Shown here: positions 31,169 through 47,681 of the stretch, piece by piece | Numbering within the stretch: the first letter of the stretch is position 1 | Layout: every line of letters begins with the position of its first letter | Source of the DNA: Candidatus Poribacteria bacterium | GTDB lineage: Bacteria > Poribacteria > WGA-4E > PCPOR2b | Length of the DNA stretch: 64,000 bases | Direction of reading: 5' to 3' | NCBI GenBank assembly: GCA_965218095.1 | Contig: OZ244587.1 | Coordinates: forward strand, 1,664,001 to 1,728,000 | Translations under genes and position numbers: made by a program | Notes under the pieces: generated by a model | What the model saw: the letters and a program-made list of their open reading frames with translations, nothing else | Told to the model about the DNA's origin: nothing | Database searches by the model: none

Positions 31169-31650
31169 ATGAAGTGTAATGATGTCCGTGAAAAATTTGT
31201 CGCCTATATTGATGGCGAACTTTCATCAATGGGAAGGCATGCAATCAAGGCGCATCTCGGTAATTGTAAGGAGTGTGCTACCGAATGCGAAAAACTGAGA
31301 GAAGCAGTCGAATCGATCCATCAGGCAGCGCCTATCCAACCCGCAGAAGATTGGTGGGAGAAATTGCGGGAACGGATTCATGTGACCGAATCCGACGTTG
31401 TGTCTGAACTCCGTGAACTGCGTGAATCTGTTGTGCGTCTGGAAGATCGGGTGGATGGCAGCGAGTCAGGTCAGACAGGCGAAAGAGATTATAACACTGG
31501 AAGAGGTCGCCGCTTATGTTCAAATCGCGCCTGACACAATGTGGAAACTGCTCGACGAAATTCCTCACTTCTAGGTAGGTTATGAACTACGGTTCAAGAA
31601 ATCCAGCGTTGATGCGTATGAAGGAGAATGGGAGTCACGGCGATTCATTC
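31169..31650 (+). pseudogene. zf-HC2 anti-sigma-like domain followed by excisionase-type HTH, disrupted
   Basis: MKCNDVREKFVAYIDGEL...HLGNCKEC; second frame IITLEEVAAYVQI...IPHF*VGYELRFKKSSVD. Confidence 0.7.
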
Positions 31651-31837: not shown

Positions 31838-33007
31838 TCATTTTTCGTTCAAATCAAGATCAAAAACCCCTGTATCCTCCGAGGCTTCTTCTTGAGTCTG
31901 ACTTTCGGCCTGTTTTGCTTGTTCAGCCGTGACAGCTTGTTCAGGGGAAGTCTCCAGTTTGGGAGACCGCCCGCCGAGGATGGTAAGCAGGACGATTAGC
32001 AGCACGGAGAGACTGGTGACCGTCAGCGCGATCGGGCGTTTTCGCAAGGGGACTCGTCCTCGCTTGTCTAAAAAGGGCAAGCACAGGAGCAGGAGGATAG
32101 CAAGGGTGGGAATCACAAAGGCGCCGATCACTTCAAGCGGTCCCTCGAAATATTTGAGCAATTGAAACAAAAACAGGAAATACCACTCTGGACGTGGGTC
32201 GTAGCTGGCATCGGTCGGATCGGCGAGCTTTTCGAGCGGCACAGGGACAAAGATCGCCATCGCCGCGAGGATGATCAATAGCACGAGGATCGCGACGGCG
32301 TCTTCAAAAAGCTGATCTGGATAAAAGGGTTTGCCCCCCTGCATTTCCTCTGGCTTATTTTGGGGCAATCCCGATGAGCCGTAATAGCGCACGAAAAACA
32401 GATGAACCCCAACGAGCCCAAAGGCAAGCCAGGGTAACCAAATGGTGTGGAGGGCGTAAAATCGAGTTAAGGTGACTGCACCAACCTCTTCCCCGCCACG
32501 GAGAATCTTGCCAACGAAATCCCCCACGAAAGGCACCGTACCCGCAATCTTCACACCGACTACAGTTGCCCAGTAAGCCTTTTGGTCCCAAGGTAGCAGA
32601 TAGCCTGTGAAACCAAATCCCAAAACCACCAGCAGCAGAATCACCCCAACTACCCATGTCATCTCTCTTGGGGCTTTGTAGGATCCGTAAATCACGACCC
32701 GCAGCAAGTGCAAAAACACGACAATCACCATCGCACTAGACCCCCAATGATGCAACCCACGCACAAAGCCGCCAAAGGGAACTTCCTTACTGATGTAGTT
32801 TACAGCATCATAAGCGTGGTCGGGTGAGGGCGAATAATAAAACGCCAGAAACGCCCCGGTAACGGCTTGAAGAATCAGCAAAAAAGCTGCTATGCTCCCC
32901 AAAGAAAACAGCCAGTTGATATGCTTCGGCAGCGGCTTTTTGAGATGGTTTTCCATGTCTTTCAACGGAAGTCGATCTCTCAGGAATGCGGCAATTTTGC
33001 GTTGCAT
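31838..33007 (-). CDS. qcrB: Cytochrome b subunit of a Rieske/cytb complex (b plus subunit IV fused)
   Basis: RGLHHWG...FLH, GYLLPWDQ, FYALH...GVH, PEWY. Confidence 0.92.
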   Translation of the reverse strand: MQRKIAAFLRDRLPLKDMENHLKKPLPKHINWLFSLGSIAAFLLILQAVTGAFLAFYYSPSPDHAYDAVNYISKEVPFGGFVRGLHHWGSSAMVIVVFLHLLRVVIYGSYKAPREMTWVVGVILLLVVLGFGFTGYLLPWDQKAYWATVVGVKIAGTVPFVGDFVGKILRGGEEVGAVTLTRFYALHTIWLPWLAFGLVGVHLFFVRYYGSSGLPQNKPEEMQGGKPFYPDQLFEDAVAILVLLIILAAMAIFVPVPLEKLADPTDASYDPRPEWYFLFLFQLLKYFEGPLEVIGAFVIPTLAILLLLCLPFLDKRGRVPLRKRPIALTVTSLSVLLIVLLTILGGRSPKLETSPEQAVTAEQAKQAESQTQEEASEDTGVFDLDLNEK

Positions 33008-33010
33008 CTG

Positions 33011-33496
33011 TTAAGCCTCCTTGACATACACAACTCCGTCTTCCACCTTGACCGGCAGTTTCTCCAGCGGACGCGGCGGTGGTCCAGCAACGACATTCCC
33101 CGCTTTGTCAAACACGCCCCCGTGACAGGGACAGAGGAACTGACCTTTCTTTTCGTCCCAGCGGACAAGGCATCCGAGATGGGTACAGACACGCGAGAAG
33201 ACCACAAAGTTTCCATCCCCTCCATCCGTTACATAGACGGAGCGTTTTTTATTTATCTCAACCCAGCCATCTTTGGATTGAAAAGTGTAGTTGATTTTTT
33301 TATAGTGGCTATCTTTGAGCAAATCGACGATACCGAGGTCTACCCATTTTTTCGAGACTTTTTTGAGGGCTGGCGAAATCGCAAACCCGACCAGCGGCAC
33401 GCCCATCGCTAGGCTGATGAGACCACCGATGAAAGCGATGCCGGCTTTGAAGAAGGCGCGCCGTTTGGATTGTCCAACATGTGTTTCAGAAGCCAT
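33011..33496 (-). CDS. qcrA: Rieske 2Fe-2S subunit
   Basis: RRAFF Tat-like anchor, [20 protein letters not shown]. Confidence 0.92.
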
Positions 33497-33542
33497 TTTT
33501 ACTTCCTCCGAATGAGCAGGTGGGAAAGTGAGAAAGTGGGCT

Positions 33543-33950
33543 TTAGTCTCGCTTGGTTCGGCTGAGTAGCCACTTCTCTGGTTGATTCCCCATTGAAACC
33601 AGTTTGCCGATAATCTGATCGTACTTTCTGAATAGACGGCTGTAGCCTTCCCGGCTGATGTAGCCACATTTTTCACTATATTCGAGCCAAACCTGGGTTT
33701 CAGCCGCTTCGCCTTCCGCCTCGTTCATCTTATTGACGAAAGCGGCTTCATATTTCCGACGTCTCCAGCCCTCAGCAATCTGACCCGAGACAGACCGTGA
33801 TGAACGACGAATCTGATCGGTTAGGCTGTATCTCTCCTCTACGGGAAACGATTTCGAGAGTTCATAGATCTCCATCGCAGCTTCGACGGAAAGTTTATAG
33901 ACATCAAGTTGCCAATGATATTGAATCCTCTCGCTCATTCGCTCCTCCAA
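33543..33950 (-). CDS. Four-helix-bundle protein (23S rRNA IVP/TIGR02436 family)
   Basis: [31 protein letters not shown]. Confidence 0.9.
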
Positions 33951-33981
33951 TTCTCACTGTCTCACTTTCCCACTTTCTCCG

Positions 33982-34971
33982 TTATTGCCCTTCCTTCAGA
34001 TCTTCGTCTAGGTCGACTTCCTCTACACTAAAGCGGAGATGCACTTTGTTGACTAAATCGATGATGTCCTGCCACTGCTTTTGGGTCTTATCAGAAATCC
34101 CCTCTTTTTCGAGGGATTCTGCAAGCTCATGGAGCGCATCATGGACCTGTTTCTGCAGATAGGCGTATTCTTCCTCGTTATTCGGATTCTTTGGTGGCAC
34201 AAACACGGGGATTAACTCGGCGTACTCCCCAAGCTGTTTCGCCGCCTTAACCACGTCGGCTTTACTTTCTCCTGTTTTGAAGTATTCCCGAATGACGATG
34301 TAAGACTCGTGCATGGTGTGCATCAACGCTTTGAGGTCTTCAAACTCATCGGCGTCATCCCCGTGTCCATGACTGTGGTCGTGTGCATCTGTTTCCGCCT
34401 TTGGCTGCTCCTTCTTTTTGAGAAAGAGTGTGTAACTCATCGCGAGCATCTTTTTCGGCATGAGCGCAACCGCTTGAGAGGCTTCCTCTTGACCGGCGAC
34501 CGGTTCGACATTTTCCCCGACTTTGAATTTATCTTCAATCCTCTTGCCGATAAACTGCTTGAGGAATTTGTCGTCGCCAATGTCGGAGGCTTCTTTATGT
34601 TTATAGACCTCGACTTTGACGACCTTTCCATTCATGTCGAGTCCAACGCCGCCATCAATGACGCCATGTGGTCCTTTGACATCCACAAACAAGATAAGAC
34701 CTAGCGGTTTCTTATTGTCGTTCACTGCGACGTAAAAGGTTGGCTTGAGGTCTTCAGAACGCAGCTTGGTTCCGATCTCTCTTTCGATCGATGCGACTTG
34801 ATCTGCTGTTAAGACAGCTTTTTTTTCAACAAATTCCTTTGCCTTCGGAAAAATGGAAGCTAATTTTTTGCCGGGCCAGGTTTTCTCTTGCGCCCATGTG
34901 ACGGTTACTGGTAAGACAGTTAGTATGCTTAAAAGAGCGATTAGGCAAAGTGCAACTGCTTTGGATTTCAT
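33982..34971 (-). CDS. Exported FMN-binding-domain-like protein with His-rich linker and helical C-terminus
   Basis: Signal peptide; VKGPHGVI, GKVVKVEV, FLKQFIGK; HDHSHGH. Confidence 0.75.
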   Translation of the reverse strand: MKSKAVALCLIALLSILTVLPVTVTWAQEKTWPGKKLASIFPKAKEFVEKKAVLTADQVASIEREIGTKLRSEDLKPTFYVAVNDNKKPLGLILFVDVKGPHGVIDGGVGLDMNGKVVKVEVYKHKEASDIGDDKFLKQFIGKRIEDKFKVGENVEPVAGQEEASQAVALMPKKMLAMSYTLFLKKKEQPKAETDAHDHSHGHGDDADEFEDLKALMHTMHESYIVIREYFKTGESKADVVKAAKQLGEYAELIPVFVPPKNPNNEEEYAYLQKQVHDALHELAESLEKEGISDKTQKQWQDIIDLVNKVHLRFSVEEVDLDEDLKEGQ

Positions 34972-35023
34972 CGGTTTTTCCTTCCTTAAATGATTGAAAA
35001 TTGATTTGCTCCCAACTATTCTA

Positions 35024-35956
35024 ACCCAAGTTGCGACCTATTCATCGAATATGTGAGTGAACTGAATATGTGAGTGAACTCAGAGCTGATTGATACTGCT
35101 AGCCAATACAAACAAGACCACTTTCAATTCAAATCCGTGTTGCGTTACTGCATGGATTGAACGTGGAAGCAGTTTGTTAATCAAACTGCCAGCCGTCTCA
35201 ACAGACTTACGATGGTAATTAGCCAAGTAGGTCTCCCATGGTGGATACAGCCGCTTGGAATTCTTCTTGCGTACTGGCTTTAACGACTGATGTAACAATA
35301 TCTTCTATCTCATAATTATTGTATGCTTTGTCACCATAGCCCGGTGGCAAGTCGAAGTCAAACCACTGTAACCCTTCAACGTCCCCTGTACTGGCTGGGG
35401 TCACAAAAAATTCAACAGGGTGTCGACTCGCAGTCACTAGCAGATGAACTTTCAAGCCATAGAAATACCGACGTTTGGACGCTTGATAGCCTCGATATGC
35501 CTTATCGGTATAGATTTTTGACCGACGAATGCGGAACAAACAGCAATTGGTATGGTATCCAGTGCATAGATTTTCTGTTGATTAAGTTGCACATAGCTTC
35601 GTCCCAAGATTTTGAACAATGTGGTGAACATCGGTTTAATTCGATGAAGTCGTCGGTTTAATCGACTTTTTGAAAGCATCTTGGGTATATAGCCATGAGT
35701 CTTTAGAAAGTCACAAGTGGTTTGCAAGTTTGCCCCGAAGAACAACGCAGCGACGATGCCGGTGGTCATCACTTCGGCATCAGACATCTGCGTTTGTGGG
35801 TGTGGTTTTGAGTTGAGTGCTTCTAAGAGCTTGTCACAGAGATAGAAAATGGTTACAATTTGGATGTCCATGGGTTTCTCCTTTGAGGTATTATGGTTTG
35901 GATTACCTCTACTTTAACGGAAAACCCATGGATTTTCAATTACTAGCAACTTGGGT
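35024..35956 (-). mobile_element. IS982-family element, transposase frameshifted
   Basis: TIR ACCCAAGTTGC / GCAACTTGGGT; 7-bp duplication TATTCTA; fragments MSDAEVMT, SKSRLNRR, YFYGLKVH, GDKAY, SVET in three frames. Confidence 0.9.
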
Positions 35957-36016
35957 TATTCTAGCAATTTCACCTTTATTTTTCAACCACATTCCCTAAA
36001 CCTCATCATGAGCACT

Positions 36017-37342
36017 TTATCCCAGATCGCGGCGAAGTTCCGCTTCCGATGCCAAGTCCGCGACCGTCCCCGGCGGATGCTTATACCAGCCGGGGTCGTC
36101 ATAACTGGTGAGATTTTCGCGGATTTTGACGATGGTAAACATCCCGCCCATCGTAATGTAGTCAAACGGACCGTATGCCCCGACCATGGGAATGCTGTTT
36201 TTCGGCACAGCCATGTGCCCCGATTCGACGTGAATCCCATGTTCACCCATGCCGTGCTCGCCCATCGTCATATACGCAGGCAGAAGTTGGCGGATTTTCT
36301 GGTCAATGTTGCCCTTTTTGATGCCGACCACGTTTAAAAATTCGTGCCCCATCTGGTTCATGACATGATGCGTCATGTGGCAGTGCATCGCCCAATCCCC
36401 CGGATCGCTGGCAACGAACTCAACATCGCGGGTTGTCCCCACCGGAACGAGAACTGTTGTTTCTGGCCATTGTCCTGAAGTCGGGATTCGCCCACCTTCT
36501 GTAGCGGTGATTTTGAAGTAGTGCCCGTGCAGGTGAATCGGGTGATGGTCCATCGCCGAAAGATTGCCGAAGCGAATCCGCACCCGGTCGCCCAGTTTGG
36601 CGACCAGCGGCTCGGTTCCGGGGTAACACTTCGCGTTCATGGTTAGGATATTGAAATCGTTCATCTCGTTAGGGTTTGGCGTGGACGTCCCCGGATCGAT
36701 CCGCCACTCGCTTAACATGATGGCAAAGTCCCGATCTACTTGGTAATGGGGGTCAGGTTTTCTGGGGTGGAAAACCATCATGCCGAGCATCCCCATCGCC
36801 ATCTGGGTCATCTCGTCGTGGTGGGAATGGTACATATACGTGCCTGATTGTCGAATTGTCCACTCGTATTTGAAGGTCTCCCCCGGCTGGATAGCTCGCT
36901 GGGTCAACCCACCCACACCGTCCATCCCATTCGGTAGAAAGACGCCGTGCCAGTGAACAGCGGTTGGTGCCTTGAGCCGGTTGGTCACATAGATGCGGAC
37001 GCGATCGCCTTCCACGGCTTCAATGGTCGGTCCGTGCACCTGCTCGTTGTAACCCCAGCACTTCGCTTTCAGACCAGGGGCAAATTCATGCCAGACTTCT
37101 TCAGCGATAAGGTGAAAGACTTTTACCCCATCAACAATCTTCCACGGTAGCGGTGCACCGTTCGGTGTGACGACCGGCGTGTAGTCTTTATCAGGGATAC
37201 CCGGGTCCATCGCCGGACGATTTGAATTGCCTGCGTAGGATTTCTGCCATTGGGATTGGGCGGCTTCTACACCTCCCGAAGCCCCGAAAGCGAAAGCCCC
37301 GCCAACGAGAGCACTCGTTTTCAAAAGATCCCTTCGGTTCAT
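36017..37342 (-). CDS. Tat-exported two-domain multicopper oxidase
   Basis: NRRDLLK; HWHG, YHSH, HPIHLHGH, HCHMTHH; Met/His-rich tail. Confidence 0.93.
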   Translation of the reverse strand: MNRRDLLKTSALVGGAFAFGASGGVEAAQSQWQKSYAGNSNRPAMDPGIPDKDYTPVVTPNGAPLPWKIVDGVKVFHLIAEEVWHEFAPGLKAKCWGYNEQVHGPTIEAVEGDRVRIYVTNRLKAPTAVHWHGVFLPNGMDGVGGLTQRAIQPGETFKYEWTIRQSGTYMYHSHHDEMTQMAMGMLGMMVFHPRKPDPHYQVDRDFAIMLSEWRIDPGTSTPNPNEMNDFNILTMNAKCYPGTEPLVAKLGDRVRIRFGNLSAMDHHPIHLHGHYFKITATEGGRIPTSGQWPETTVLVPVGTTRDVEFVASDPGDWAMHCHMTHHVMNQMGHEFLNVVGIKKGNIDQKIRQLLPAYMTMGEHGMGEHGIHVESGHMAVPKNSIPMVGAYGPFDYITMGGMFTIVKIRENLTSYDDPGWYKHPPGTVADLASEAELRRDLG

Positions 37343-37343
37343 C

Positions 37344-38801
37344 TCAATGTCCTCCTTCCTGGTTTGTCAATGACAGTTCAGCCATGCGGTGAAGCCGGTA
37401 GGGTCGAAAAGTGAATCCCACTAGCCGACCGTTGAGAATCTGTTCCAGTTCCGCTCGTGCGACATGATAATTGTAGAGCGACTGGATATATTCCCGACCG
37501 GCGTCAATCTCGCGCTGTTTTGCGAGTAACAGGCGTAACGCACCGACCTGCATTGCATTGTACTGTAGTTGGACCTGTTCGAGAATCTTCTCTTGGAGTG
37601 GAAGTATTTCATTCTGATAAGACAGTGCGGTCTGTCGAGCGGTCAATAGGCGACGTCGCGCGGCGCGAACCGCGGAGCGGATCTCAACCGCCAGTGCGTG
37701 GTATTCACCCTGCTGTCGGCGTAACTCTGCCGCTGCCGCCGCTCGCTGCCCCTGATTTCGATCGAAAAGTGGAATCTCAAACCCCAGTGCGGGTCCCGCT
37801 GCCCACGCTCCTGCTTCCTGCTCAATCTCCCCACCGATTTCCAAATTCGGCACGAGAGACATCGCTTTTGCCACGCCGAGTTGTTTCCCGATGGAAACGA
37901 TGCCCCGCCGTGCAATGGCAAGGTTGATGCTGTTTTCAATCGCCCGCTTTTCGAGGTTGTCGAGTCCTATTGCTTCAGCAGGAATGTCGCGGAGTCGAGA
38001 TTCGACTCTCCACGCCGTATCCTCTCCCCACAACCCCATCAAAGCGTTGAGTTGCTCACGGTTTTCAGCAAGCGTGACCTCCGCAGCAGCGAGTTCTAAC
38101 TTCGATCGCTCATAGGACGTTTTTTGAAGCAGTAGGTCTAGCTCCGGGACATTCCCCGCTTCGACAAGCTGTTGGGCGAACTCGTAACCCGCCTGCGTTG
38201 CCAAGACGATCTGCTGGAACATTTCCAACATCTGCTCATCAGCTTGAACGCGGTAGAATGCCATTCGCGTTTCCCCTGCCAAATCCACCACGGCAGCCGT
38301 CATGCGCAGTTTCGCTGCCTCGAACTGGGATTTCGCTACCGATTTGCGCATCGGCGCGTACAGCATGGAGAGGAAATCCATTTCGACTTCAAAGGTGTAC
38401 GTGCTGTTGTCACGGAGTTTGTCCACCATCTCCTCGTCGGAATCAGAGGGGCCGAAGGTCGTTGCGCCGTGAAAAACCGGATTCGAGAACAAGCCAGCGT
38501 CAACAATGGCAGCGTGGGCAATCCCCAATTCCTCATAGGTCGCTTGCAGACGATGGTTATTCAACAGCGCAATTTGAACGGCAGCATCGACGGTCAGCGG
38601 CTTATCCAACAATTCTCTAATTGCCTGAGCCGCTTCATCATCCGCAGCCGTGTCCGCATTCCAGTGAATACGGTAGCCAATACGGTCATCCACCTGCCGC
38701 TGGACTTCGCTGAAACCCGTTTTTTTCGACACACCGGCGCAACCGATCAGGACGAATGACGCCGCGAAGAACAACACGGCGCATCTCATTTTTTCGTTCA
38801 T
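37344..38801 (-). CDS. TolC/OEP-family outer-membrane lipoprotein (metal efflux type)
   Basis: Lipobox LIGC; AVQIALLNN, EIPLFDRNQG. Confidence 0.9.
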   Translation of the reverse strand: MNEKMRCAVLFFAASFVLIGCAGVSKKTGFSEVQRQVDDRIGYRIHWNADTAADDEAAQAIRELLDKPLTVDAAVQIALLNNHRLQATYEELGIAHAAIVDAGLFSNPVFHGATTFGPSDSDEEMVDKLRDNSTYTFEVEMDFLSMLYAPMRKSVAKSQFEAAKLRMTAAVVDLAGETRMAFYRVQADEQMLEMFQQIVLATQAGYEFAQQLVEAGNVPELDLLLQKTSYERSKLELAAAEVTLAENREQLNALMGLWGEDTAWRVESRLRDIPAEAIGLDNLEKRAIENSINLAIARRGIVSIGKQLGVAKAMSLVPNLEIGGEIEQEAGAWAAGPALGFEIPLFDRNQGQRAAAAAELRRQQGEYHALAVEIRSAVRAARRRLLTARQTALSYQNEILPLQEKILEQVQLQYNAMQVGALRLLLAKQREIDAGREYIQSLYNYHVARAELEQILNGRLVGFTFRPYRLHRMAELSLTNQEGGH

Positions 38802-38822
38802 CTAGTAAACTCCTCGTCTGTT

Positions 38823-39707
38823 TTAATAGTTATGTTCGTGTGCATCGTGTCCATGAGGGTCTTCCGATTCATCCTCGTGATGCTCCATCTCCTCGTGCTC
38901 CTGTGTTTTGTGCATGTCATGATGGTGATGCTCGTGTCCACCTTTTTCCTGCTTATGCTCGTGAGACTTCATGTCCTCGTGTCCAGACATATCGGTGCTT
39001 GAGACGGGCATCTGCATTTTCGCGCTGTGGCACTTGAGCATCGCGCTTCCGAAATACGGGTTGCGGACGTCCTCGCCGACTTGCAGCCAGATACCCCCTT
39101 GCGGGACATCGGACGCCATACCGCACACGTAGCTGTAGACCGGACTCTCGTAACTTGCTGGCACACTGACAGCGGCAACGAAGTGATTGAGGACATCGCT
39201 CAACGAACCGTAGGCGACACGCGCAGCTTTGATGTCCGAGAGATCGCCGACTTCATGTCCATGGTCATGGATGGCCTCGGTATGGGCTTCGTAAGAATGC
39301 CACAACTCGGCGGGCACTTCGTGTTCAAGCGTATGGAGGGCTTCGAGCATCGCGTGCGCCTGCGCGTTGACATCTTCCATCGTGTCGGAAGCGAGTTGGT
39401 CGCCGATGACGAAATAGGCGTCTAGCATCATCGCCAGCGCTTCTTCGCCTTCCTCCGACAACGACGCAGCCCTGTGATGCGCTGCGACGCCTTCTTCAGT
39501 CATCGCCATCTCTTCCTTTAGCGTGTCTGGTGGAATTCCAAAGACAGTCTGCGGCGCACCAGGATGCGCCGGATGGTCCTGTGGAGTAGCAACTTCGACT
39601 GTTTTGCCGCCGCATCCAACGACAAGCGACGATACAATGATGAGTCCAAGGATAAGTGTAGATACGGTTCGTTTATGGAAGTTGAAAACCCTGGATAACA
39701 TGAGCAT
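38823..39707 (-). CDS. DUF3347-like His-rich metal-binding lipoprotein
   Basis: Lipobox VVGC; YVCGMA...WLQ...VRNPYFGSAMLKC; His-rich C-terminus. Confidence 0.85.
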   Translation of the reverse strand: MLMLSRVFNFHKRTVSTLILGLIIVSSLVVGCGGKTVEVATPQDHPAHPGAPQTVFGIPPDTLKEEMAMTEEGVAAHHRAASLSEEGEEALAMMLDAYFVIGDQLASDTMEDVNAQAHAMLEALHTLEHEVPAELWHSYEAHTEAIHDHGHEVGDLSDIKAARVAYGSLSDVLNHFVAAVSVPASYESPVYSYVCGMASDVPQGGIWLQVGEDVRNPYFGSAMLKCHSAKMQMPVSSTDMSGHEDMKSHEHKQEKGGHEHHHHDMHKTQEHEEMEHHEDESEDPHGHDAHEHNY

Positions 39708-39832
39708 AGCCTCCGTTTTGGGTAAAAAATGATCAAAGATAGGTTTTGGGCGTTTCAACATAGACGCGCAGAAACGCCGATCGATCAATAGATTTTGAGT
39801 CTTTCAGATTTGGGAAAGCGTGGAGGAGAAAA

Positions 39833-40300
39833 TCAGGTGAAAGGAAACGGAGGGGCGCGGGGGGAAATCTGCTGAGTAGGAGAATCTTTGTAGGGTTTGT
39901 AGGCGAATTGAAGATAGGAAGTGAAAGAAACGGAGTCGGAAGAAATCTTAGGAATTGCAGGGATTAGCGCAACAAATGAGAACTTGCCTTTTTGTATTTG
40001 TGAGACGAGCTGAGGTTCGCTGGCTCCGAGCAATTCCCACCGGTTTAAGCAACAATTGTCGTCTCCATCGTTTTGGCTTTCGTGGGGGCGGGCTGGTTGA
40101 TTTTCAGCATGACAGCAAGTTGGATTGTCTGTTTCAGCGGTGGTTTGTGACAAGGTCAGAGACTGCCGATAGATCGAGGCTTTATCGGATTCGGCGTCTC
40201 CACAGTCTGCTTCTCGGAGTGCTGGACATAGCACCGGGCAAAGAAAATAAACTGAAGATATCGAGAGTAAAACCAGCGCGTAAACGTCCTTGAATTTCAT
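39833..40300 (-). CDS. DUF2946/CutF-like leader protein with C-terminal PRAPP
   Basis: Hydrophobic N-terminus, CPVLC, CCH, CC, ends ISPRAPPFPFT; GGAGG RBS. Confidence 0.8.
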   Translation of the reverse strand: MKFKDVYALVLLSISSVYFLCPVLCPALREADCGDAESDKASIYRQSLTLSQTTAETDNPTCCHAENQPARPHESQNDGDDNCCLNRWELLGASEPQLVSQIQKGKFSFVALIPAIPKISSDSVSFTSYLQFAYKPYKDSPTQQISPRAPPFPFT

Positions 40301-40386
40301 CAAATTACCGCCTCCCATGCAATAATACTTCTACGCAATAATAATAATTATACCCGGCTTTGCGTATGGAAGTCAAATTTTTCGCC

Positions 40387-40595: not shown

Positions 40596-40953
40596 CTAAC
40601 CCATAACCGCCTCTTCCTGTTCAACCGCAATCGAGAACCACCTATACAGCGCCGGAATCACTAACAACGTCAAAATGGTTGATGTGACCAAACCACCGAT
40701 CACCACCGTTGCCAAAGGACGTTGTACCTCGCTGCCAGTACCATGGGACAAGACAATGGGGACGAGCCTAAGCCCAGCCGCGGATGCTGTTATCAGCACG
40801 GGACGTAGCCTCAAGCAGGCGCTGCGAATACATGCGTCGGTCATGGGAATTCCCTCCTGTAGGAGCTGGTTGAGGCAGGTCACCAAAACCATGCCATTGG
40901 CGAGAGCAATCCCGAAGAGCGCAATGAAGCCTATCGATGCCGGGACAGACAGG
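40596..40953 (-). pseudogene. C-terminal remnant of CusA/CzcA heavy-metal RND pump
   Basis: SIGFIALFGIA..NGMVLV, RLRPVLITA, GSEVQRPLATVVIGGL. Confidence 0.85.
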
Positions 40954-41139: not shown

Positions 41140-41455
41140 GCTTGATGGGGTTGGCACGCCGAAGCAGACCCTTCTGTTGCAGAACTATCTCAACCCGTTC
41201 AACCCTGAAACGTGGATTCCGTATCACCTTTCGGAAGCTGCTCCTGTAACCCTATCAATTTACGACACGACCGGACAACGGATACGGACGCTTTCGCTTG
41301 GATTCCAGTTAGCAGGCTTCTATCAAAGCCGTCCACGCGCTGCCTATTGGGATGGGTGCAACGACTTGGGTGAACGGGTTTCAAGCGGGGTCTATTTTTA
41401 CCAATTGTCCACCCCATCTTTCTATCGGATGAAGCGGATGGTTATTGTGAAGTAG
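41140..41455 (+). pseudogene. Orphan Poribacteria-type C-terminal domain
   Basis: LLQNYLNPFNPETWIPY...AAYWDG...GVYFYQL; no N-terminal part. Confidence 0.75.
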
Positions 41456-42095: not shown

Positions 42096-43204
42096 GAGGG
42101 GTGTGCATAGTAGTTCATTGGAAAACAGCCGCCATATGAGAGATATTGCGAGCAGGTAACTTCCATATGGCATTGGCAATCATAGCCACTTGCACTGATA
42201 ACACCCCGATAGCTAAACAACAGCGTACATTGAAAAACCCCTTGACCGGTAACTGCTTCTGTTGAGGAGTGGTGCCTATCACTTTAGCAATCAAGTCAAA
42301 CAACGGTTCAACCGAACTGCGACGTTTGCTTAAACAGAGACGCTGCTTGGGTTGGTTGATAAATCGATGATACGCCTTGGCAAACCGTCCCTTTGTCCAT
42401 CTAAGTGCCGGGGTAATCAAAGCGACTTGTGCCTTCGCCCAACGACGGATACGGTCTGCTTGGGTATAGGCATCATCGGCAGTGAGTGTCTGCGGTGAAA
42501 GTTGTGTCAGAATCTCAGACGCTTTAGCATCTATCGCCCAACTTTCGGAGACCGACGCACGGTGCACAGTTATCAGTGTTGGGAACGCACCTTGTGTGCA
42601 GATAATGTGAAGTCCGTAGCCATAGACCCAGCCATGATAACCACTCTTGCTCCACGTGGCATCGGTGTCGAGGTTGCGTAGATGTTTAGGTGCTTTTCCT
42701 GCTTTGCGGTCAGTTTGATGCCAGACGGGTCCTCGTGCCTTAAATAAACTTTTGTCGGCTACCAGATGAGCCAAGTTGAATTGTTGGGACAAGTCAGTGG
42801 CATACTGACCGATAAACAATACAAATGCCTCTATCACTTCATATAATGCCTTATAGCGACGTGCAATCGTGGTTCGATGAGGGGGCTGTTGCCACCCCAG
42901 CATTTGTAACACTTCTGGGTGATTGATTAGCCACCGCCATTGCGTTTTGAAGCCATAGATGCCGTGAAACTGCATCAACATGAAGAAAATGATAAACGAG
43001 GTGGTTGAATATGTCAATGGTTTTGCGTGTGTGACACCTGGTTTGTCAATACGGTGTTGCATAAACTGCTCAAAGAGTTGCATAATAAGAGTGACATAAT
43101 CAGCCAACATTGGTCTTTGTACCATATTGGGGCTCCTTTTGCTATGATAACAATAGGAAACCCTTTTGGCTTGATTATGTCAACTATATTTATGCACACC
43201 CCTC
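42096..43204 (-). mobile_element. Insertion sequence (DDE_Tnp_1-type)
   Basis: Perfect 14-bp TIR GAGGGGTGTGCATA / TATGCACACCCCTC; 9-bp duplication ACCTAAACT. Confidence 0.9.
42115..43125 (-). CDS. DDE transposase
   Basis: VADKS, DTDATW, GWVYGYGLH, TADDAY, RRSSVEPLF. Confidence 0.88.
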   Translation of the reverse strand: MVQRPMLADYVTLIMQLFEQFMQHRIDKPGVTHAKPLTYSTTSFIIFFMLMQFHGIYGFKTQWRWLINHPEVLQMLGWQQPPHRTTIARRYKALYEVIEAFVLFIGQYATDLSQQFNLAHLVADKSLFKARGPVWHQTDRKAGKAPKHLRNLDTDATWSKSGYHGWVYGYGLHIICTQGAFPTLITVHRASVSESWAIDAKASEILTQLSPQTLTADDAYTQADRIRRWAKAQVALITPALRWTKGRFAKAYHRFINQPKQRLCLSKRRSSVEPLFDLIAKVIGTTPQQKQLPVKGFFNVRCCLAIGVLSVQVAMIANAIWKLPARNISHMAAVFQ

Positions 43205-43640: not shown

Positions 43641-46600
43641 TTGAATAAGCGGATTACCTCAATACCTATTGTGCTAGCACTCTATACAATCCTAATATGT
43701 ATTCCATCTTCGGTATATGCCAAAAAGGGGGTAAGACAGCAGATTCAACTGAAAGCAGGCGCGGCGTTGCAGCGGATCAAATCCGATTCAGAAACCCCTG
43801 TCCGTGCACGATGGCATCAGAACCGGGGGACAGTCCGCAACCTTTACAATTTGACACTGCCTGCCCCGATAGGAACGCTGGAAACATCAGTGCGTCAATG
43901 CCTTACCGACTATTGTGACCTTTTTGCGATGACTGATCCAAACATCGAGTTGCGTCTCACGGATATCCAAAACAGCTTAACGGGCAGACATGTTCGATTC
44001 CATCAATACTACAACGGTATCGAAGTTTACGGTGCAGTGACCTCGGTCCACACCAACCGCTCTGGGCAGATACGAGTCATCCACAACAACTACTTCCCAC
44101 AGATCAACATCAGTACAGCGGCATCGCTCTCCCCGGAACAAGCAATCAGTATCGCCATTGCCGAGTCCGGTGCATTCGATTTGCGCAAGCCGCCGCGTGT
44201 CAACTTGGTAATTTTCCCGGATCGTAATACGGGACAGATAGGCGACTATGCTAATGCGTATCGCCTCGCTCACCGCACAATCGTGCACTCCCGTCAACCA
44301 CTCGCAAGTTGGGAGTATATCATTGACACCAACACCGGCGAGCTGTTGCACCGACGGAACCTGCTCAGGTTTGCTGACGGACAAGGGCGCGTCTTTAACC
44401 CGAATCCTGTTGTCGCCCTTAAAGATTTCACGCTCATGGACCAAGATGATTCTCCTGACGCGATACCAGAAGCAGCGTATACGGATGTGATGCTACCTGA
44501 GTTGGACGGGAGTGGTTTTCTTGATGGGCCTTACGCGAGTACGAGATTGACCGAAAATCGTGCCAACGAGCCGACGCTGGGGTTCAACTATCTCCGAGAT
44601 GATCCCCGATTTGAGGAGGTGATGGTCTATTATCACGTTGATGCCGTTGGGCGTTATTTGAAAGGACTCGGCTTCGATTTCGTGGACAATTGGCAGATTC
44701 CTGCGAATGTGCATTTCGGTATGACGAGGGCTGGTTTCTATAACGATAGTGAGGGATCGATTAATTTCGGAGATGCCGGTGTTGATGTTGCCGAAGATGC
44801 TGAAGTGATTATCCATGAATATGGTCACGCGATCCTTGATCGACAGGTCCCTAACATTAACAAGGGCGAAGGTGGCGCGATACACGAAGGGTTTAGTGAT
44901 TTTCTCGCAGCCAGTTTTTTCAGTGCCGTGAGCGATGGTTTTAGTGACTCGATCGTTTTTGAATGGGCTGGTTCAGGTGACCCTGAGATTTACACTCGTC
45001 CCGTAACTGGTAACAAGCGTTATCCCGAAGACATTGTGGGTGAGCCACACACCGATGGAGAGATTTGGTCTGCGGCACTATGGGAGATTTTTGAGGCGAT
45101 TGGACGCGATGCGTCGATCCGCTTGATTGTCGAGAGCCATTTCTTCCTCTCACCCGACACGGAACTTGTCGATGGGGCATCAGCGATTTTTATGGCGGAT
45201 CAGGAACTGAATGGTGGAGTAAATTTCGACCTAATTTTGGGAATTATGGAGAACCGTGGATTCTTTACGCTGCCCAAATTGGCATCGGATGCCTTTGAGG
45301 AGAACGATACAGCGGAGACCGCAGCCGCGATTGAGCTCCCGTTTGTCAACGGAGAACTGTCCGTCCACACAGCGGACAATGATGATTACTATAGATTCCG
45401 TTTGGATGAGACAATGCAGGTTGGGTTGGGAATTGATTTTCAACCCATTTACGGGGAGTTGATGCTAACATTGATGGGACCTAATGGTATCGAGCTTGTT
45501 ACCTTCGAGACGAAGGATGTTACATCGCTTGAATTAGTGCCGGGCGATTATGTCGTTGCAGTTTCGGGCATCAACGGTGCGACTAACGATTATAAACTAG
45601 CGCTTATCGTTGACAACCACGGCGATACGCCTGACACAGCGACATCTGTGGCGATCGGCGACACGATAGAAAGTTTCATCGACTTCAACGGAGATACGGA
45701 TTTCTTCGCGATTGAAGGTGAGAAGGGGCAGCGCATTGAAATCACTATTACGACAAAGAACTCCGACCTCGACTCTCTGCTCGTTGTCTATGGACCAGAT
45801 GGTGAGCTCTTTGCTAAAAGTGATGATGTCTTGCCGACCATCGGTCCGGAGCCGATTCCCGAACTAAATCCGCGTGGGATTGATTCCCGCGTGAGTGAAA
45901 AACTACCAGCCAATGGAACGTACCTGCTCGCTGTCAGCAACATTGCACTTCCCAATCTGAATGCCCCCTTTGGCGGTCTAAACTACTCTTACACACTGAC
46001 GATCAGTGGGAAGACCGATGACCATGCAGCGTGCGGTAGTGGCGAGGAAACGCCATTGACCTTCGATGCACCTATAACAGGTATCATTACCCTTAGCACC
46101 CTTAGCGGTGATCCTACATCACCGGATCCTCAAGACTCGGAACCCGATCTTCATGACTCGGACGGTTTCCGCTTTGAAGCGTCAGAGGGCACTGTCATTG
46201 CCCTACACGTTGAGGTAGAAACGCCTGCACGCGAGGTAATATTTATGGTGACCCTCCTCAGTCTTTTGGATGCATCTGGAGAAACGTTGGTATCTACTCG
46301 TGGCGCTCCTAATGGCTTAGAGGTGCGGATTGATGGATTTCTCATCCCTGCCGATGGCGAGTATTGTGTTGATGTTGCCGGTTTCATAGGAGGTGCGGTT
46401 GGTTCCACTTATACCTATACGCTGACGTTATCTGAGGGCGAACTGCCCGAAGATGATCACGAAGATCTGAAAGGGAATCCAACCCCCTTAACGGTGGGTG
46501 TTCCTGTCGAGGGAGCGATCAGTTTTGTCGGGGATGCCGATGCGTTTCAGTTTACTGCTACAGCGGGACAAATCATTACGTTAGCGGTGGACGGGCAACC

Positions 46601-47681
46601 CGCCACTCCGTTCTCTCGTTTAGTTTTGACCCTGTATAATAGCGATTTACAGCGTTTAGCCGAGGTTCCGCTCTTTATAGAAGGTATTGATTCGATGCTA
46701 GAAGGATTTGAAATTCCTGTGGACGGAATTCACTATGCCGAGATTAGAGATATGTTCGGAGGAAGTGAAGCGAATTTTTCCTACACACTGACCCTGACAA
46801 TCGAAGAGGGAGATGTTGAGCGTAAATTTCCCCCTTATGATGTCAACCAAGATGGCAAGGTGGACATTTTTGATCTCGTGCTTGTCGGTCAACATTTCGG
46901 CGAAAAATTCATTAACGCCACGCCAACTGCAGATTTTGGACAGTTCCGTTCGGTATCGCCCGAAGGGGAGTTGCGGCTCCTGATGACCCCGAGTGTGACG
47001 GATACACGACAATTGACCGTCTCAATCCACACCACAGCGATTGCCGATCTTTACGGCTACCATTTTTCAATCCAGTACGATCCGGCGATATTAGAGTTCC
47101 TTACTGCATCACCAAGCCCGGTTTTAGCCGCTGCGCTGCCCCAAAGTTACTGGCATATCTCCCAGCAAGGGACACAACTGAAGTTCACACAGACACGTCA
47201 AGCAACGCTGAAAGGTGTGACAGCAGAGGGTTCACTGGCTATGCTTGTTTTTCATGTCAAAAAGACGGTGCCCCCGTCGTCGCAGCCCCCCATCCGGCTC
47301 GTTGACCTGCAACTGGCGGATTCGCTGACAAGAGCGATTCCGGTGCACGTGGTCGGTGAGCGAGTGTCAATGACAGAGCTATTCCCTGAGAAACCGATGT
47401 TGCTGCAAAACCACCCGAACCCGTTTAACCCGGAAACATGGATTCCGTATCAACTCTCTACCGATTCAGAGGTGGTTATCTCAATTTACGATACAAACGG
47501 TGAGCGTGTCCGTCAATTTGACCTCGGCTATCAGCACGTTGGGACATACATTACTCGCGGTAGGGCGGCCTACTGGGATGGAGAAGACATGTATGGTGAG
47601 CAGGTTGCGAGCGGCTTATATTTTTATCAGATCCGGGCGGGTGCGTTTTCTGCGACCCGCAAAATGGTTATCGTCAAATAG
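43641..47681 (+). CDS. Secreted M36/M4-like zinc metalloprotease with propeptide, PPC repeats, dockerin, cohesin-like and Poribacteria-type C-terminal domains
   Basis: HVRFHQYYNGIEVYG, IHEYGH, HEGFSD, PHTDGEIW, DDH/DNHGD-led repeats, YDVNQDGKVDIFDLV, IQYDPAILEF, NHPNPFNPETWIPY. Confidence 0.92.
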   Translation: MNKRITSIPIVLALYTILICIPSSVYAKKGVRQQIQLKAGAALQRIKSDSETPVRARWHQNRGTVRNLYNLTLPAPIGTLETSVRQCLTDYCDLFAMTDPNIELRLTDIQNSLTGRHVRFHQYYNGIEVYGAVTSVHTNRSGQIRVIHNNYFPQINISTAASLSPEQAISIAIAESGAFDLRKPPRVNLVIFPDRNTGQIGDYANAYRLAHRTIVHSRQPLASWEYIIDTNTGELLHRRNLLRFADGQGRVFNPNPVVALKDFTLMDQDDSPDAIPEAAYTDVMLPELDGSGFLDGPYASTRLTENRANEPTLGFNYLRDDPRFEEVMVYYHVDAVGRYLKGLGFDFVDNWQIPANVHFGMTRAGFYNDSEGSINFGDAGVDVAEDAEVIIHEYGHAILDRQVPNINKGEGGAIHEGFSDFLAASFFSAVSDGFSDSIVFEWAGSGDPEIYTRPVTGNKRYPEDIVGEPHTDGEIWSAALWEIFEAIGRDASIRLIVESHFFLSPDTELVDGASAIFMADQELNGGVNFDLILGIMENRGFFTLPKLASDAFEENDTAETAAAIELPFVNGELSVHTADNDDYYRFRLDETMQVGLGIDFQPIYGELMLTLMGPNGIELVTFETKDVTSLELVPGDYVVAVSGINGATNDYKLALIVDNHGDTPDTATSVAIGDTIESFIDFNGDTDFFAIEGEKGQRIEITITTKNSDLDSLLVVYGPDGELFAKSDDVLPTIGPEPIPELNPRGIDSRVSEKLPANGTYLLAVSNIALPNLNAPFGGLNYSYTLTISGKTDDHAACGSGEETPLTFDAPITGIITLSTLSGDPTSPDPQDSEPDLHDSDGFRFEASEGTVIALHVEVETPAREVIFMVTLLSLLDASGETLVSTRGAPNGLEVRIDGFLIPADGEYCVDVAGFIGGAVGSTYTYTLTLSEGELPEDDHEDLKGNPTPLTVGVPVEGAISFVGDADAFQFTATAGQIITLAVDGQPATPFSRLVLTLYNSDLQRLAEVPLFIEGIDSMLEGFEIPVDGIHYAEIRDMFGGSEANFSYTLTLTIEEGDVERKFPPYDVNQDGKVDIFDLVLVGQHFGEKFINATPTADFGQFRSVSPEGELRLLMTPSVTDTRQLTVSIHTTAIADLYGYHFSIQYDPAILEFLTASPSPVLAAALPQSYWHISQQGTQLKFTQTRQATLKGVTAEGSLAMLVFHVKKTVPPSSQPPIRLVDLQLADSLTRAIPVHVVGERVSMTELFPEKPMLLQNHPNPFNPETWIPYQLSTDSEVVISIYDTNGERVRQFDLGYQHVGTYITRGRAAYWDGEDMYGEQVASGLYFYQIRAGAFSATRKMVIVK

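Follow-up and report, generated by a model that had tools for sequence, protein, structure and literature searches.

A cytochrome b562-like domain as a candidate replacement for cytochrome c1 in a Rieske/cytochrome b module of Candidatus Poribacteria

The stretch of DNA analysed here (64,000 nucleotides, termed the window) comes from a complete Candidatus Poribacteria genome of 6.35 Mb, G000, and the genes of interest are all placed on the minus strand between positions 40318 and 31838, as defined by open reading frames (ORFs) and their Pfam and NCBIfam matches (Table 1). A copper cassette ending in a multicopper oxidase (MCO) is followed by the gene of a secreted protein with a likeness to flavin mononucleotide (FMN)-binding proteins, termed the FMN-like protein, and by genes for a Rieske 2Fe-2S protein and a cytochrome b (together Rieske/cytb). 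Our reading, to which we assign a probability of about 0.6, is that a b562-type haem domain within the secreted two-domain FMN-like protein replaces cytochrome c1 or f in this poribacterial quinol oxidase. Haem binding by the domain, electron transfer to it from the Rieske protein, the relation of the Rieske and haem potentials and the onward acceptor are what we infer within this reading. The labels f1-f9 and g1-g7 used below are arbitrary and denote poribacterial families and genera, with g1 being the genus of the window.

Gene order was compared in 80 loci around relatives of the cytochrome b, in 40 poribacterial genomes at the FMN-like gene and in six more at the MCO gene, and the presence or absence of genes was scored in 151 genomes of the phylum. 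The 80 cytochrome b loci comprise 63 non-poribacterial loci, with cytochrome b sequences 40-55% identical, and 17 poribacterial ones. A CxxCH motif occurs in the frame or frames holding cytochrome b in 56 of the 63 non-poribacterial loci and in a gene on the same strand no more than 3 kb away in six further loci, giving a total of 62/63, and the contig of the 63rd ends too early to tell. No CxxCH is present in or beside cytochrome b in any of the 17 poribacterial loci, nor in the module of the window. The initial annotation of this DNA had remarked on a Rieske/cytb module without a c-type cytochrome gene and on the lack of any CxxCH gene in the stretch, and the translations bear out both statements. 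It had also allowed that a conventional c1 gene might simply have been deleted here, an explanation that falls away as a c-type partner is missing from all the poribacterial loci. The FMN-like gene is present in 135 of the 151 genomes (f1 25/25, f2 10/10, f3 99/100, f4-f9 0/15 and G000 itself). In ten genomes from f4-f7 no close orthologue of the cytochrome b is seen (best identity 38-54%, with one genome giving no match), and no FMN-like gene is found; this fits a co-occurrence of cytochrome b and FMN-like genes, yet a single clade amounts to a single event.

The association of the FMN-like protein with the complex is seen both in gene order and in gene fusions. It immediately precedes the Rieske gene in 25/25 f1/f2 loci with a clear orthologue. 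In g3 the cytochrome b gene is found 0.9-3.5 Mb away in 5/5 genomes (and away also in loci L002 and L004), and the Rieske gene remained beside the FMN-like gene after cytochrome b had moved. Three genomes from two f3 genera (G025, G079 and G033) encode a longer cytochrome b of 501-508 amino acids in which the last 120 residues form a b562-like domain with all of its invariant residues kept, and a fourth genome (G108) has the same fusion signature. Ten of the best 120 domain-matching clusters in a collection of 5.8 billion proteins are proteins of 490-509 amino acids with cytochrome b Pfam domains. The fusion point is the very position at which the relatives from other phyla carry a c-haem domain. 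In G033 the fused copy is the only one seen with the FMN-like query, and the N-terminal RnfG-like domain described below is dispensable in this genome once the bundle is tethered. Because of the fusions, the adjacency of the FMN-like and Rieske genes in f1/f2 and the retention of the Rieske gene in g3, the FMN-like protein is assigned to the complex, in agreement with the initial annotation, which had grouped it with Rieske/cytb.

The AlphaFold model of the FMN-like protein, built from 23 sequences, shows two confidently predicted domains connected by a disordered linker. The C-domain modelled alone has a predicted local distance difference test score (pLDDT) of 87.9 and a predicted template modelling (TM) score of 0.80, and forms a bundle of four helices (domain residues 9-29, 33-52, 62-86 and 90-110). 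The top rows of a Foldseek search with this domain are cytochrome b562 variants, with TM scores of 0.77-0.79 and root mean square deviations of 2.3-2.8 Å over 109 columns. In a language-model feature search, clusters named "cytochrome b562 family" rank first and second, with scores of 0.86 (170 shared features) and 0.83. Positions 8-110 of the C-domain profile align with residues 2-105 of Escherichia coli K-12 CybC in a single comparison with 6.6 bits and an E-value of 5e-4. In this alignment an invariant methionine falls on Met7 and an invariant histidine on His102, the axial haem ligands of CybC, and the invariant loop FEPPKN falls on PPK and EG on EG. The match also takes in the aromatic residue located three positions beyond the histidine. 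Across the 23 sequences the invariant residues of the C-domain are Met217, Met220, Phe257, Pro259, Asn262, Tyr269, His311 and Phe314, with Tyr224 likewise invariant and Trp300 conserved, and given the modelled helix limits the first eight are located at the end of the bundle at which b562 holds its haem. A profile search of 1.84 billion representative sequences with the C-domain returned 20 proteins at E ≤0.001, presumably members of the same family or fragments of them, so the domain family looks confined to Poribacteria at the sensitivity of HMMER, with no bridge to b562 families.

The N-domain is predicted with pLDDT values mostly above 90, and its fold is that of RnfG and NqrC. Foldseek returns 9eri_G (E 5.5e-7), 7zc6_G (5e-6) and NqrC (1.8e-5), with RnfG/NqrC entries extending to 1e-4, and the flavin-binding family PF04205 scores 21.1-23.3 bits on this domain, the cut-off being 22. 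Two residues beyond the invariant Gly160 is the position that presumably corresponds to the flavinylated threonine of the S/T-G-A-T motif in RnfG/NqrC. With the register read by eye, this position is occupied by Glu, Gln, Arg, Lys or Thr and is unconserved in the 23 sequences, among which no invariant Cys, His, Met or Thr is seen in the N-domain. The protein described as FMN-binding-like in the initial annotation has the fold but, in this register, lacks the flavinylated threonine. A lipobox, indicating a lipid anchor, is visible in the f2 orthologues. A protein of 449 residues from genus g5 (G001, L108:9444-10790) has ~130 extra residues in the linker between the RnfG-like and b562-like domains.

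The ORF of the Rieske protein is open from 33676, and an alignment of 26 sequences places the most likely start, common to all relatives, at 33496. The boxes CTHLGC and CPCHGG are invariant in the 26 sequences, and the potential-tuning positions are occupied by Gly and Phe. Rieske proteins of the Gly/Phe type are of low potential, below +200 mV, in the passages of PMC3509893 that treat them. The cytochrome b has seven helices by reading of the sequence. The PEWY motif and the spacing of 14 residues between the helix-D histidines (H187 and H202) were correctly described in the initial annotation, and PEWY together with the pairs H86/H100 and H187/H202 is invariant in 23 sequences. Its observation of a serine in the stretch WLFSLG is likewise accurate, and we take this position to be that of the haem-ci cysteine in b6. 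The acidic C-terminal tail of cytochrome b (31838-31960) would face the periplasm and ends in the motif E-x-VFD(F/L)-x-L-x-EE, of which VFDF/L is invariant and which is duplicated in three relatives. The C terminus of the b562-like protein (33982-34030) also ends in a conserved acidic motif, EE(I/V)DLDEDL. From their sequences, the two acidic tails might serve in docking to one basic partner shared by both proteins, or might be left over from an older fusion.

In the proposed mechanism, quinol would be oxidised at the Qo site marked by PEWY, with one electron passing to the low-potential Gly/Phe-type Rieske cluster. The Rieske protein would then reduce a single b-type haem, ligated by Met217 and His311 in the periplasmic bundle, which would take the place of cytochrome c1 or f. 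The bundle would be held near the complex by the RnfG-like domain, by the lipid anchor in f2 or by fusion, and the N-domain, having no conserved cofactor ligand, would serve as a docking module.

Several observations weigh against this reading. The Foldseek E-values for the C-domain are 0.18 and worse, and none of the sequence searches is significant for b562. PF07361, the CybC family, is touched by 5 of the 23 members with a best E-value of 0.0046, below the cut-off, and a scan of the genome with PF07361 does not report the FMN-like gene. A profile search of the PDB reaches b562 over its full length at an E-value of 1.1, and a comparison by hhalign with E. coli CybC as a single sequence gives a probability of 0.41 with a local match of 12 columns only. 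The exhaustive structural scan with VIA-align of 48,161 representative chains does speak for a haem bundle, in that it places Kusta0087/88 first (Z 13.5), followed by BRIL fusions (12.2-12.7) and cytochromes c' (12.4-12.6), with designed bundles and PsbQ-like proteins below the haem bundles, but helical bundles often give Z values under ~13, near their background, and the PDB is crowded with b562 variants. The synteny counts come from related genomes and represent few independent events. In f3 the stand-alone FMN-like gene is away from Rieske/cytb in 14/14 loci. To these are added the presence of another possible acceptor for the Rieske protein and a set of residues that could suit Cu(I) in place of haem, both of which are taken up below.

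In 12 of the 14 f3 loci (L109-L122) the FMN-like gene is located between two other genes, examples of which are L116:10500-12032 and L116:8341-9399. One of these neighbours encodes a YtkA-like two-domain His-rich protein that is possibly copper-related. The other encodes a protein of ~510 amino acids that starts with a CxxCH domain, contains an acidic stretch of Ca-binding-like character and closes with a C-terminal region read as porin-like; a weak family match is confined to its N-terminal part. The window's genome has no homologue of either neighbour gene.

The alternative that survives best, with a modest chance of being correct, is that the two-domain protein is a cofactor-free assembly, docking or regulatory subunit and that the Rieske protein passes its electrons to a c-type cytochrome or cupredoxin with a gene at some other site. 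The genome, which has a single COX1 gene, encodes one aa3 oxidase with a CuA site and near it a membrane-anchored cytochrome c of 259 amino acids with one CxxCH, in addition to many other CxxCH ORFs. This monohaem protein could be the acceptor, which keeps the cofactor-free subunit alive as an explanation. A second Rieske/cytb unit is found at G000:C1:2171367-2177009, ~25 kb from the COX1 gene, and comprises a Rieske protein with a twin-arginine translocation (TAT) signal, a cytochrome b6 of 257 amino acids, a subunit IV of 288 amino acids and a protein of 1037 amino acids with eight CxxCH motifs. The loss of the flavin site from the N-domain and the failure of any member to pass the PF07361 cut-off are also in keeping with a subunit devoid of cofactors. 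Such a subunit does not explain why the invariant Met and His occupy exactly the b562 ligand positions with the other invariants at the same end of the bundle, nor why the site of its fusion is the one that holds a c-haem domain in relatives, and the stable fusion of an assembly factor to its client is seldom seen.

It is improbable, more so than the cofactor-free subunit, that the b562-like protein acts as a periplasmic hub with lineage-specific acceptors, namely the MCO in g1 and g3 and the outer-membrane c-haem/β-barrel protein in f3. Metal- or haem-related neighbours occur in two lineages, which leaves room for a partner that feeds different periplasmic acceptors, the MCO included. If this were true, the MCO would be a quinol-fed terminal oxidase in g1 and g3, b562-type proteins would gain a first physiological role and part of the idea behind the initial annotation, electron flow towards the oxidase, would be rescued.

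A copper function of the C-domain has still less in its favour. In this explanation the bundle would bind Cu(I) through two methionines and a histidine and would be a copper chaperone or sensor kept beside the Rieske gene by chance. The CusF site is composed of Met2His plus Trp, and the residue set of the C-domain, with invariant Met217, Met220 and His311 and a conserved Trp300, resembles it; copper-related neighbours are moreover present in two lineages. The occurrence of the domain as part of cytochrome b, the close linkage to the Rieske gene in lineages free of the MCO, the collinear b562 match including the PPK loop and the aromatic residue after the histidine, and the ranking of haem bundles first in structure searches all argue for haem instead, and make a copper site very unlikely.

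The initial annotation had tied the oxidase to Rieske/cytb, so that the cassette and the module would be one unit in which quinol electrons pass through the FMN-like protein to the MCO or to metal. The two are indeed co-oriented and adjacent in the window and in 15/15 g3 loci with a spacer as short as ~110 bp, the FMN-like gene of f3 adjoins the YtkA-like, possibly copper-related gene in 12/14 loci, and a T1-copper oxidase could in principle take electrons from a small haem protein. The distribution of the genes across relatives speaks against a single unit. The MCO is present in 31/151 genomes (g3 19/20, g7 9/9, f4 2/4, g2 0/4, f3 0/100) and is not found in the 100 f3 and four g2 genomes, which belong to lineages keeping the Rieske/cytb and FMN-like genes. 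In g7 the MCO is 81-83% identical to that of the window and is located megabases from the FMN-like-Rieske-cytb genes or on another contig in seven of nine genomes, these being all that can be compared, as the remaining two have both genes on small contigs with positions that are not comparable. The order FMN-like-Rieske-cytb occurs without an MCO nearby in 4/4 g2 and 6/6 f2 loci.

The cassette abuts the FMN-like gene only in the window's genus and in the sister genus g3 (15/15 loci), and an adjacency limited to two sister genera may be a single event. The spacer between the two ranges there from ~110 to ~1165 bp and accepts insertions, and the g3 genomes encode cytochrome b at another site. 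A box TTGACA-N17/18-TATACT is located in the g3 spacer 62-65 nt before the ATG of the FMN-like gene in 15/15 genomes, with the sequence further upstream being unconserved. A promoter-like element separate from the cassette is thus present in relatives, and the corresponding TTGAAA-17-TAGAAT box of the window sits exactly at the insertion point of the IS982-family insertion sequence (IS). The unlinking in g7, the absence of the MCO from f3 and g2 and the promoter-like box in g3 are the kinds of observation that the initial annotation itself had named as contradicting the oxidase link, and we regard a single unit as highly improbable. On gene order, the stretch is best described as two independent modules side by side, the cassette and the FMN-like-Rieske-cytb genes, of which the latter is the older unit. 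Metatranscriptome contigs from four sponge runs of one study, short, of low depth and mostly 99-100% identical, cover cytochrome b, the Rieske and four-helix-bundle genes, the FMN-like gene (in one run), the MCO, TolC, DUF3347-like and up161 genes; none spans the IS borders, and such contigs cannot show transcript ends and may derive from DNA carry-over.

Table 1. Features of the copper cassette and of the Rieske/cytb module in the window, listed from the upstream end.
Feature	Position	Strand	Basis and remarks
up161, Cys-containing protein of 161 amino acids, no family	39833..40318	-	No Pfam/NCBIfam match; first gene of copper cassette
DUF3347-like periplasmic protein with His-rich tail	38823..39788	-	PF11827 E 1.7e-4, below cut-off; kept in cassette
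TolC/OEP-family outer-membrane channel	37344..38801	-	PF02321 E 1.2e-33
Two-domain multicopper oxidase (MCO), 441 amino acids, TAT signal, Met-rich stretches	36017..37342	-	PF07732 + PF07731; last cassette gene
Promoter-like box TTGAAA-17-TAGAAT	35958..35986	-	Consensus scan, 10/12 matches + TG extension; severed from downstream genes by IS
IS982-family insertion sequence, transposase frame in two pieces	35022..35958	-	NF033520 on two ORFs; inverted repeats; AGAAT duplication
FMN-like secreted protein, 329 amino acids	33982..34971	-	Weak FMN_bind match; two domains
N-domain of FMN-like protein, residues 31-185, RnfG/NqrC-like fold	34417..34881	-	Model + Foldseek + PF04205
C-domain of FMN-like protein, residues 208-320, cytochrome b562-like bundle	34012..34350	-	Fold, conserved residues, fusions to cytochrome b
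Four-helix-bundle protein, 23S rRNA intervening-sequence family	33543..33950	-	PF05635 E 5.5e-31, TIGR02436
Rieske 2Fe-2S protein, 161 amino acids, twin-arginine anchor	33011..33496	-	PF00355 E 1.2e-11
Unsplit cytochrome b, b6 + subunit-IV type, 389 amino acids	31838..33007	-	PF00033 E 1.9e-54, PF13631, PF00032

The run of seven co-oriented genes with an IS982 copy, as first described, is borne out by Pfam and NCBIfam matches of the ORFs, although the count of seven leaves out up161, an eighth co-oriented gene that also belongs to the copper cassette. By comparison with the other loci, two elements of the run, the four-helix-bundle gene and the IS982 copy, have been inserted recently and in this genome only. 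The IS is bounded at 35022-35958 by terminal inverted repeats of 12 bp and flanked by a 5-bp target duplication, AGAAT. The genome holds 31 matches of at least 878 bp to it, including the window copy, of which 27 are at least 94.9% identical. The two transposase pieces score 37.8 and 65.9 bits, each short of the NF033520 cut-off of 130 owing to the broken frame. Metatranscriptome contigs derived from other copies of the IS end at 35022 and 35958/35961. The distance from the MCO stop codon to the next ATG is 1045 bp and becomes ~103 bp when the IS and the 5-bp duplication are removed, close to the ~110 bp first estimated and to the ~110 bp seen in IS-free relatives. An outward-reading hybrid promoter was sought by eye at the IS end and none was convincing. 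The four-helix-bundle gene, initially counted as part of the module, has no match in the 80 cytochrome b loci or in 41 FMN-like-gene loci and is present only here, pointing to a local insertion; the gap between the FMN-like and Rieske genes is 3-170 bp in the other loci, with one of ~420 bp.

The copper cassette (40318-36017) is best read from its gene content as a self-contained periplasmic copper-resistance island with an MCO of the cuprous-oxidase type. The translation of the MCO contains the HSH of domain 1 and the HCH of domain 2 reported in the initial annotation; domain 1 also has HWH, and domain 2 has HxH, the HCH there being part of HCH-x3-H-x4-M. Against TIGR01480, the CopA/PcoA family with three cupredoxin domains, the protein scores 175.5 bits with a cut-off of 478.95, and only PF07732 and PF07731 are matched. 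The DUF3347-like protein is a probable metal binder and shows no likeness to the FMN-like protein in BLASTP (best E 0.38). The gene up161 accompanies DUF3347-TolC-MCO in 15/15 g3 and 4/4 g7 loci. The cassette stands alone and ends at the MCO in g7 (4/4 loci fetched) and in f4, where it lacks up161 (2/2 loci). It shares with CopA/PcoA/CueO and Cus-type factors export by the TAT route, four motifs for copper binding, segments rich in Met, and the nearby TolC-family channel and metal-binding protein. In a difference from CopA/PcoA/CueO, the MCO of the cassette has two cupredoxin domains only and 441 amino acids, and unlike Cus-type systems the conserved cassette has no gene for a resistance-nodulation-division (RND) pump or membrane-fusion protein. 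The G+C content of the cassette is 0.53-0.56 compared with 0.42-0.51 for the IS and the region upstream of the cassette. A Gemmatimonadota contig (L059:14760-17320) has an MCO of 59% identity with a TolC gene, ~7.5 kb from Rieske/cytb and on the opposite strand. Being 1 of 63 non-poribacterial loci, this was taken as chance and not as MCO-Rieske linkage. An identity as high as 59% between phyla points to horizontal movement of the copper cassette. Taken alone, the cassette is an ordinary resistance island.

Copies of IS elements and putative gene remnants are found upstream of the cassette. An ORF of 98 amino acids (40596-40892) resembles the C terminus of an RND heavy-metal pump, and one of 92 amino acids (41177-41455) resembles the sorting tail of a large protease encoded at 43641-47681; both are putative remnants by reading of the translations only. 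A 336-amino acid ORF (42115-43125), presumably a transposase, has the same first 50 residues as an ORF of equal length that adjoins the octahaem cluster (G000:C1:2170125-2171135), and it looks like another multi-copy insertion sequence. Downstream of the module a zf-HC2 anti-sigma-factor gene on the plus strand (31169-31534) is convergent with the cytochrome b gene at its end. Cytochrome b of the closest g2 relative is followed by yebC, ruvC, ruvA, ruvB and queA, so that the flank downstream of the module has been rearranged here.

Rieske/cytb complexes are among the most conserved of energy-converting enzymes, with a fixed core and a third, electron-exit subunit that has been swapped in evolution. 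In the Bacillus QcrC type the cytochrome b/subunit IV part is fused to a c-type haem domain, and such fusions are common. The relatives in Acidobacteriota, Nitrospirota, Chloroflexota and other phyla share with the window a b6-like cytochrome b (40-55% identical), and a periplasmic haem domain on the C terminus after the seventh helix is a further likeness to the proposed arrangement. The appended or adjoining domain contains CxxCH in them (62/63), whereas the domain in Poribacteria, free or fused, is b562-like (CxxCH 0/17). In the Sulfolobus SoxLN-CbsAB system the mono-haem b-type CbsA is thought to replace cytochrome c1. CbsA resembles the proposed poribacterial arrangement as an outer-face b-type haem protein at the c1 position of a Rieske/cytb analogue, but it is archaeal, unrelated and glycosylated, with neither a b562 fold nor an RnfG-like domain.

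The Chlorobiaceae operon has no c1 or f gene, a membrane cytochrome c being the likely acceptor, and we know of no dedicated b562-like partner in that group. The b-type partner in the Rieske/cytb-Nar cluster of haloarchaea probably comes from a different protein family, and the poribacterial partner is unlike it in combining a b562-like with an RnfG-like domain. Shared features of the Chlorobiaceae Rieske/cytb, in the portions of PMC3509893 devoted to it, are the unsplit seven-helix cytochrome b and its b6-like character. For the haloarchaeal cluster, the corresponding portions describe the lack of a cytochrome c gene and propose a periplasmic b-type cytochrome as the shuttle for the Rieske protein (Baymann et al. 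2012, PMC3509893). This cluster has in common with the poribacterial one the freedom from cytochrome c, a proposed b-type periplasmic partner and a Rieske protein of the Gly/Phe type that predicts a low potential; it differs in being archaeal and linked to nitrate reductase (PMC3509893), the poribacterial one being bacterial with no linked terminal reductase. A literature search by titles and abstracts returned nothing on the FMN-like protein or on b562 with Rieske complexes. The suggestion of the initial annotation that this periplasmic branch is undescribed thus appears to hold at the level of titles and abstracts. Systems with a b-type protein and no c1 are known or proposed in Archaea, and a b562-type domain on an RnfG-like carrier in the role of c1 is apparently not in print.

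The C-domain shares the size of the bundle and similar helix lengths with CybC (PF07361) and with class II cytochromes c (c', c556, Kusta0087/88). With CybC it further shares a methionine near the start of helix 1, a histidine placed four residues short of the helix-4 end and the PPK loop. CybC is a free protein, whereas the poribacterial domain is part of a protein of ~320 amino acids or of cytochrome b. To our knowledge no physiological role has been assigned to CybC in E. coli, and the b562 fold is widely used as an engineering scaffold. If the proposed replacement of cytochrome c1 is correct, it would provide a function for the b562 fold and would represent a new exit module for bacterial complex III, which most Poribacteria would have as a free protein and some as a fusion with cytochrome b. 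The respiration of these abundant sponge symbionts would then have two types of complex III, one c-less and b562-like and the other octahaem.

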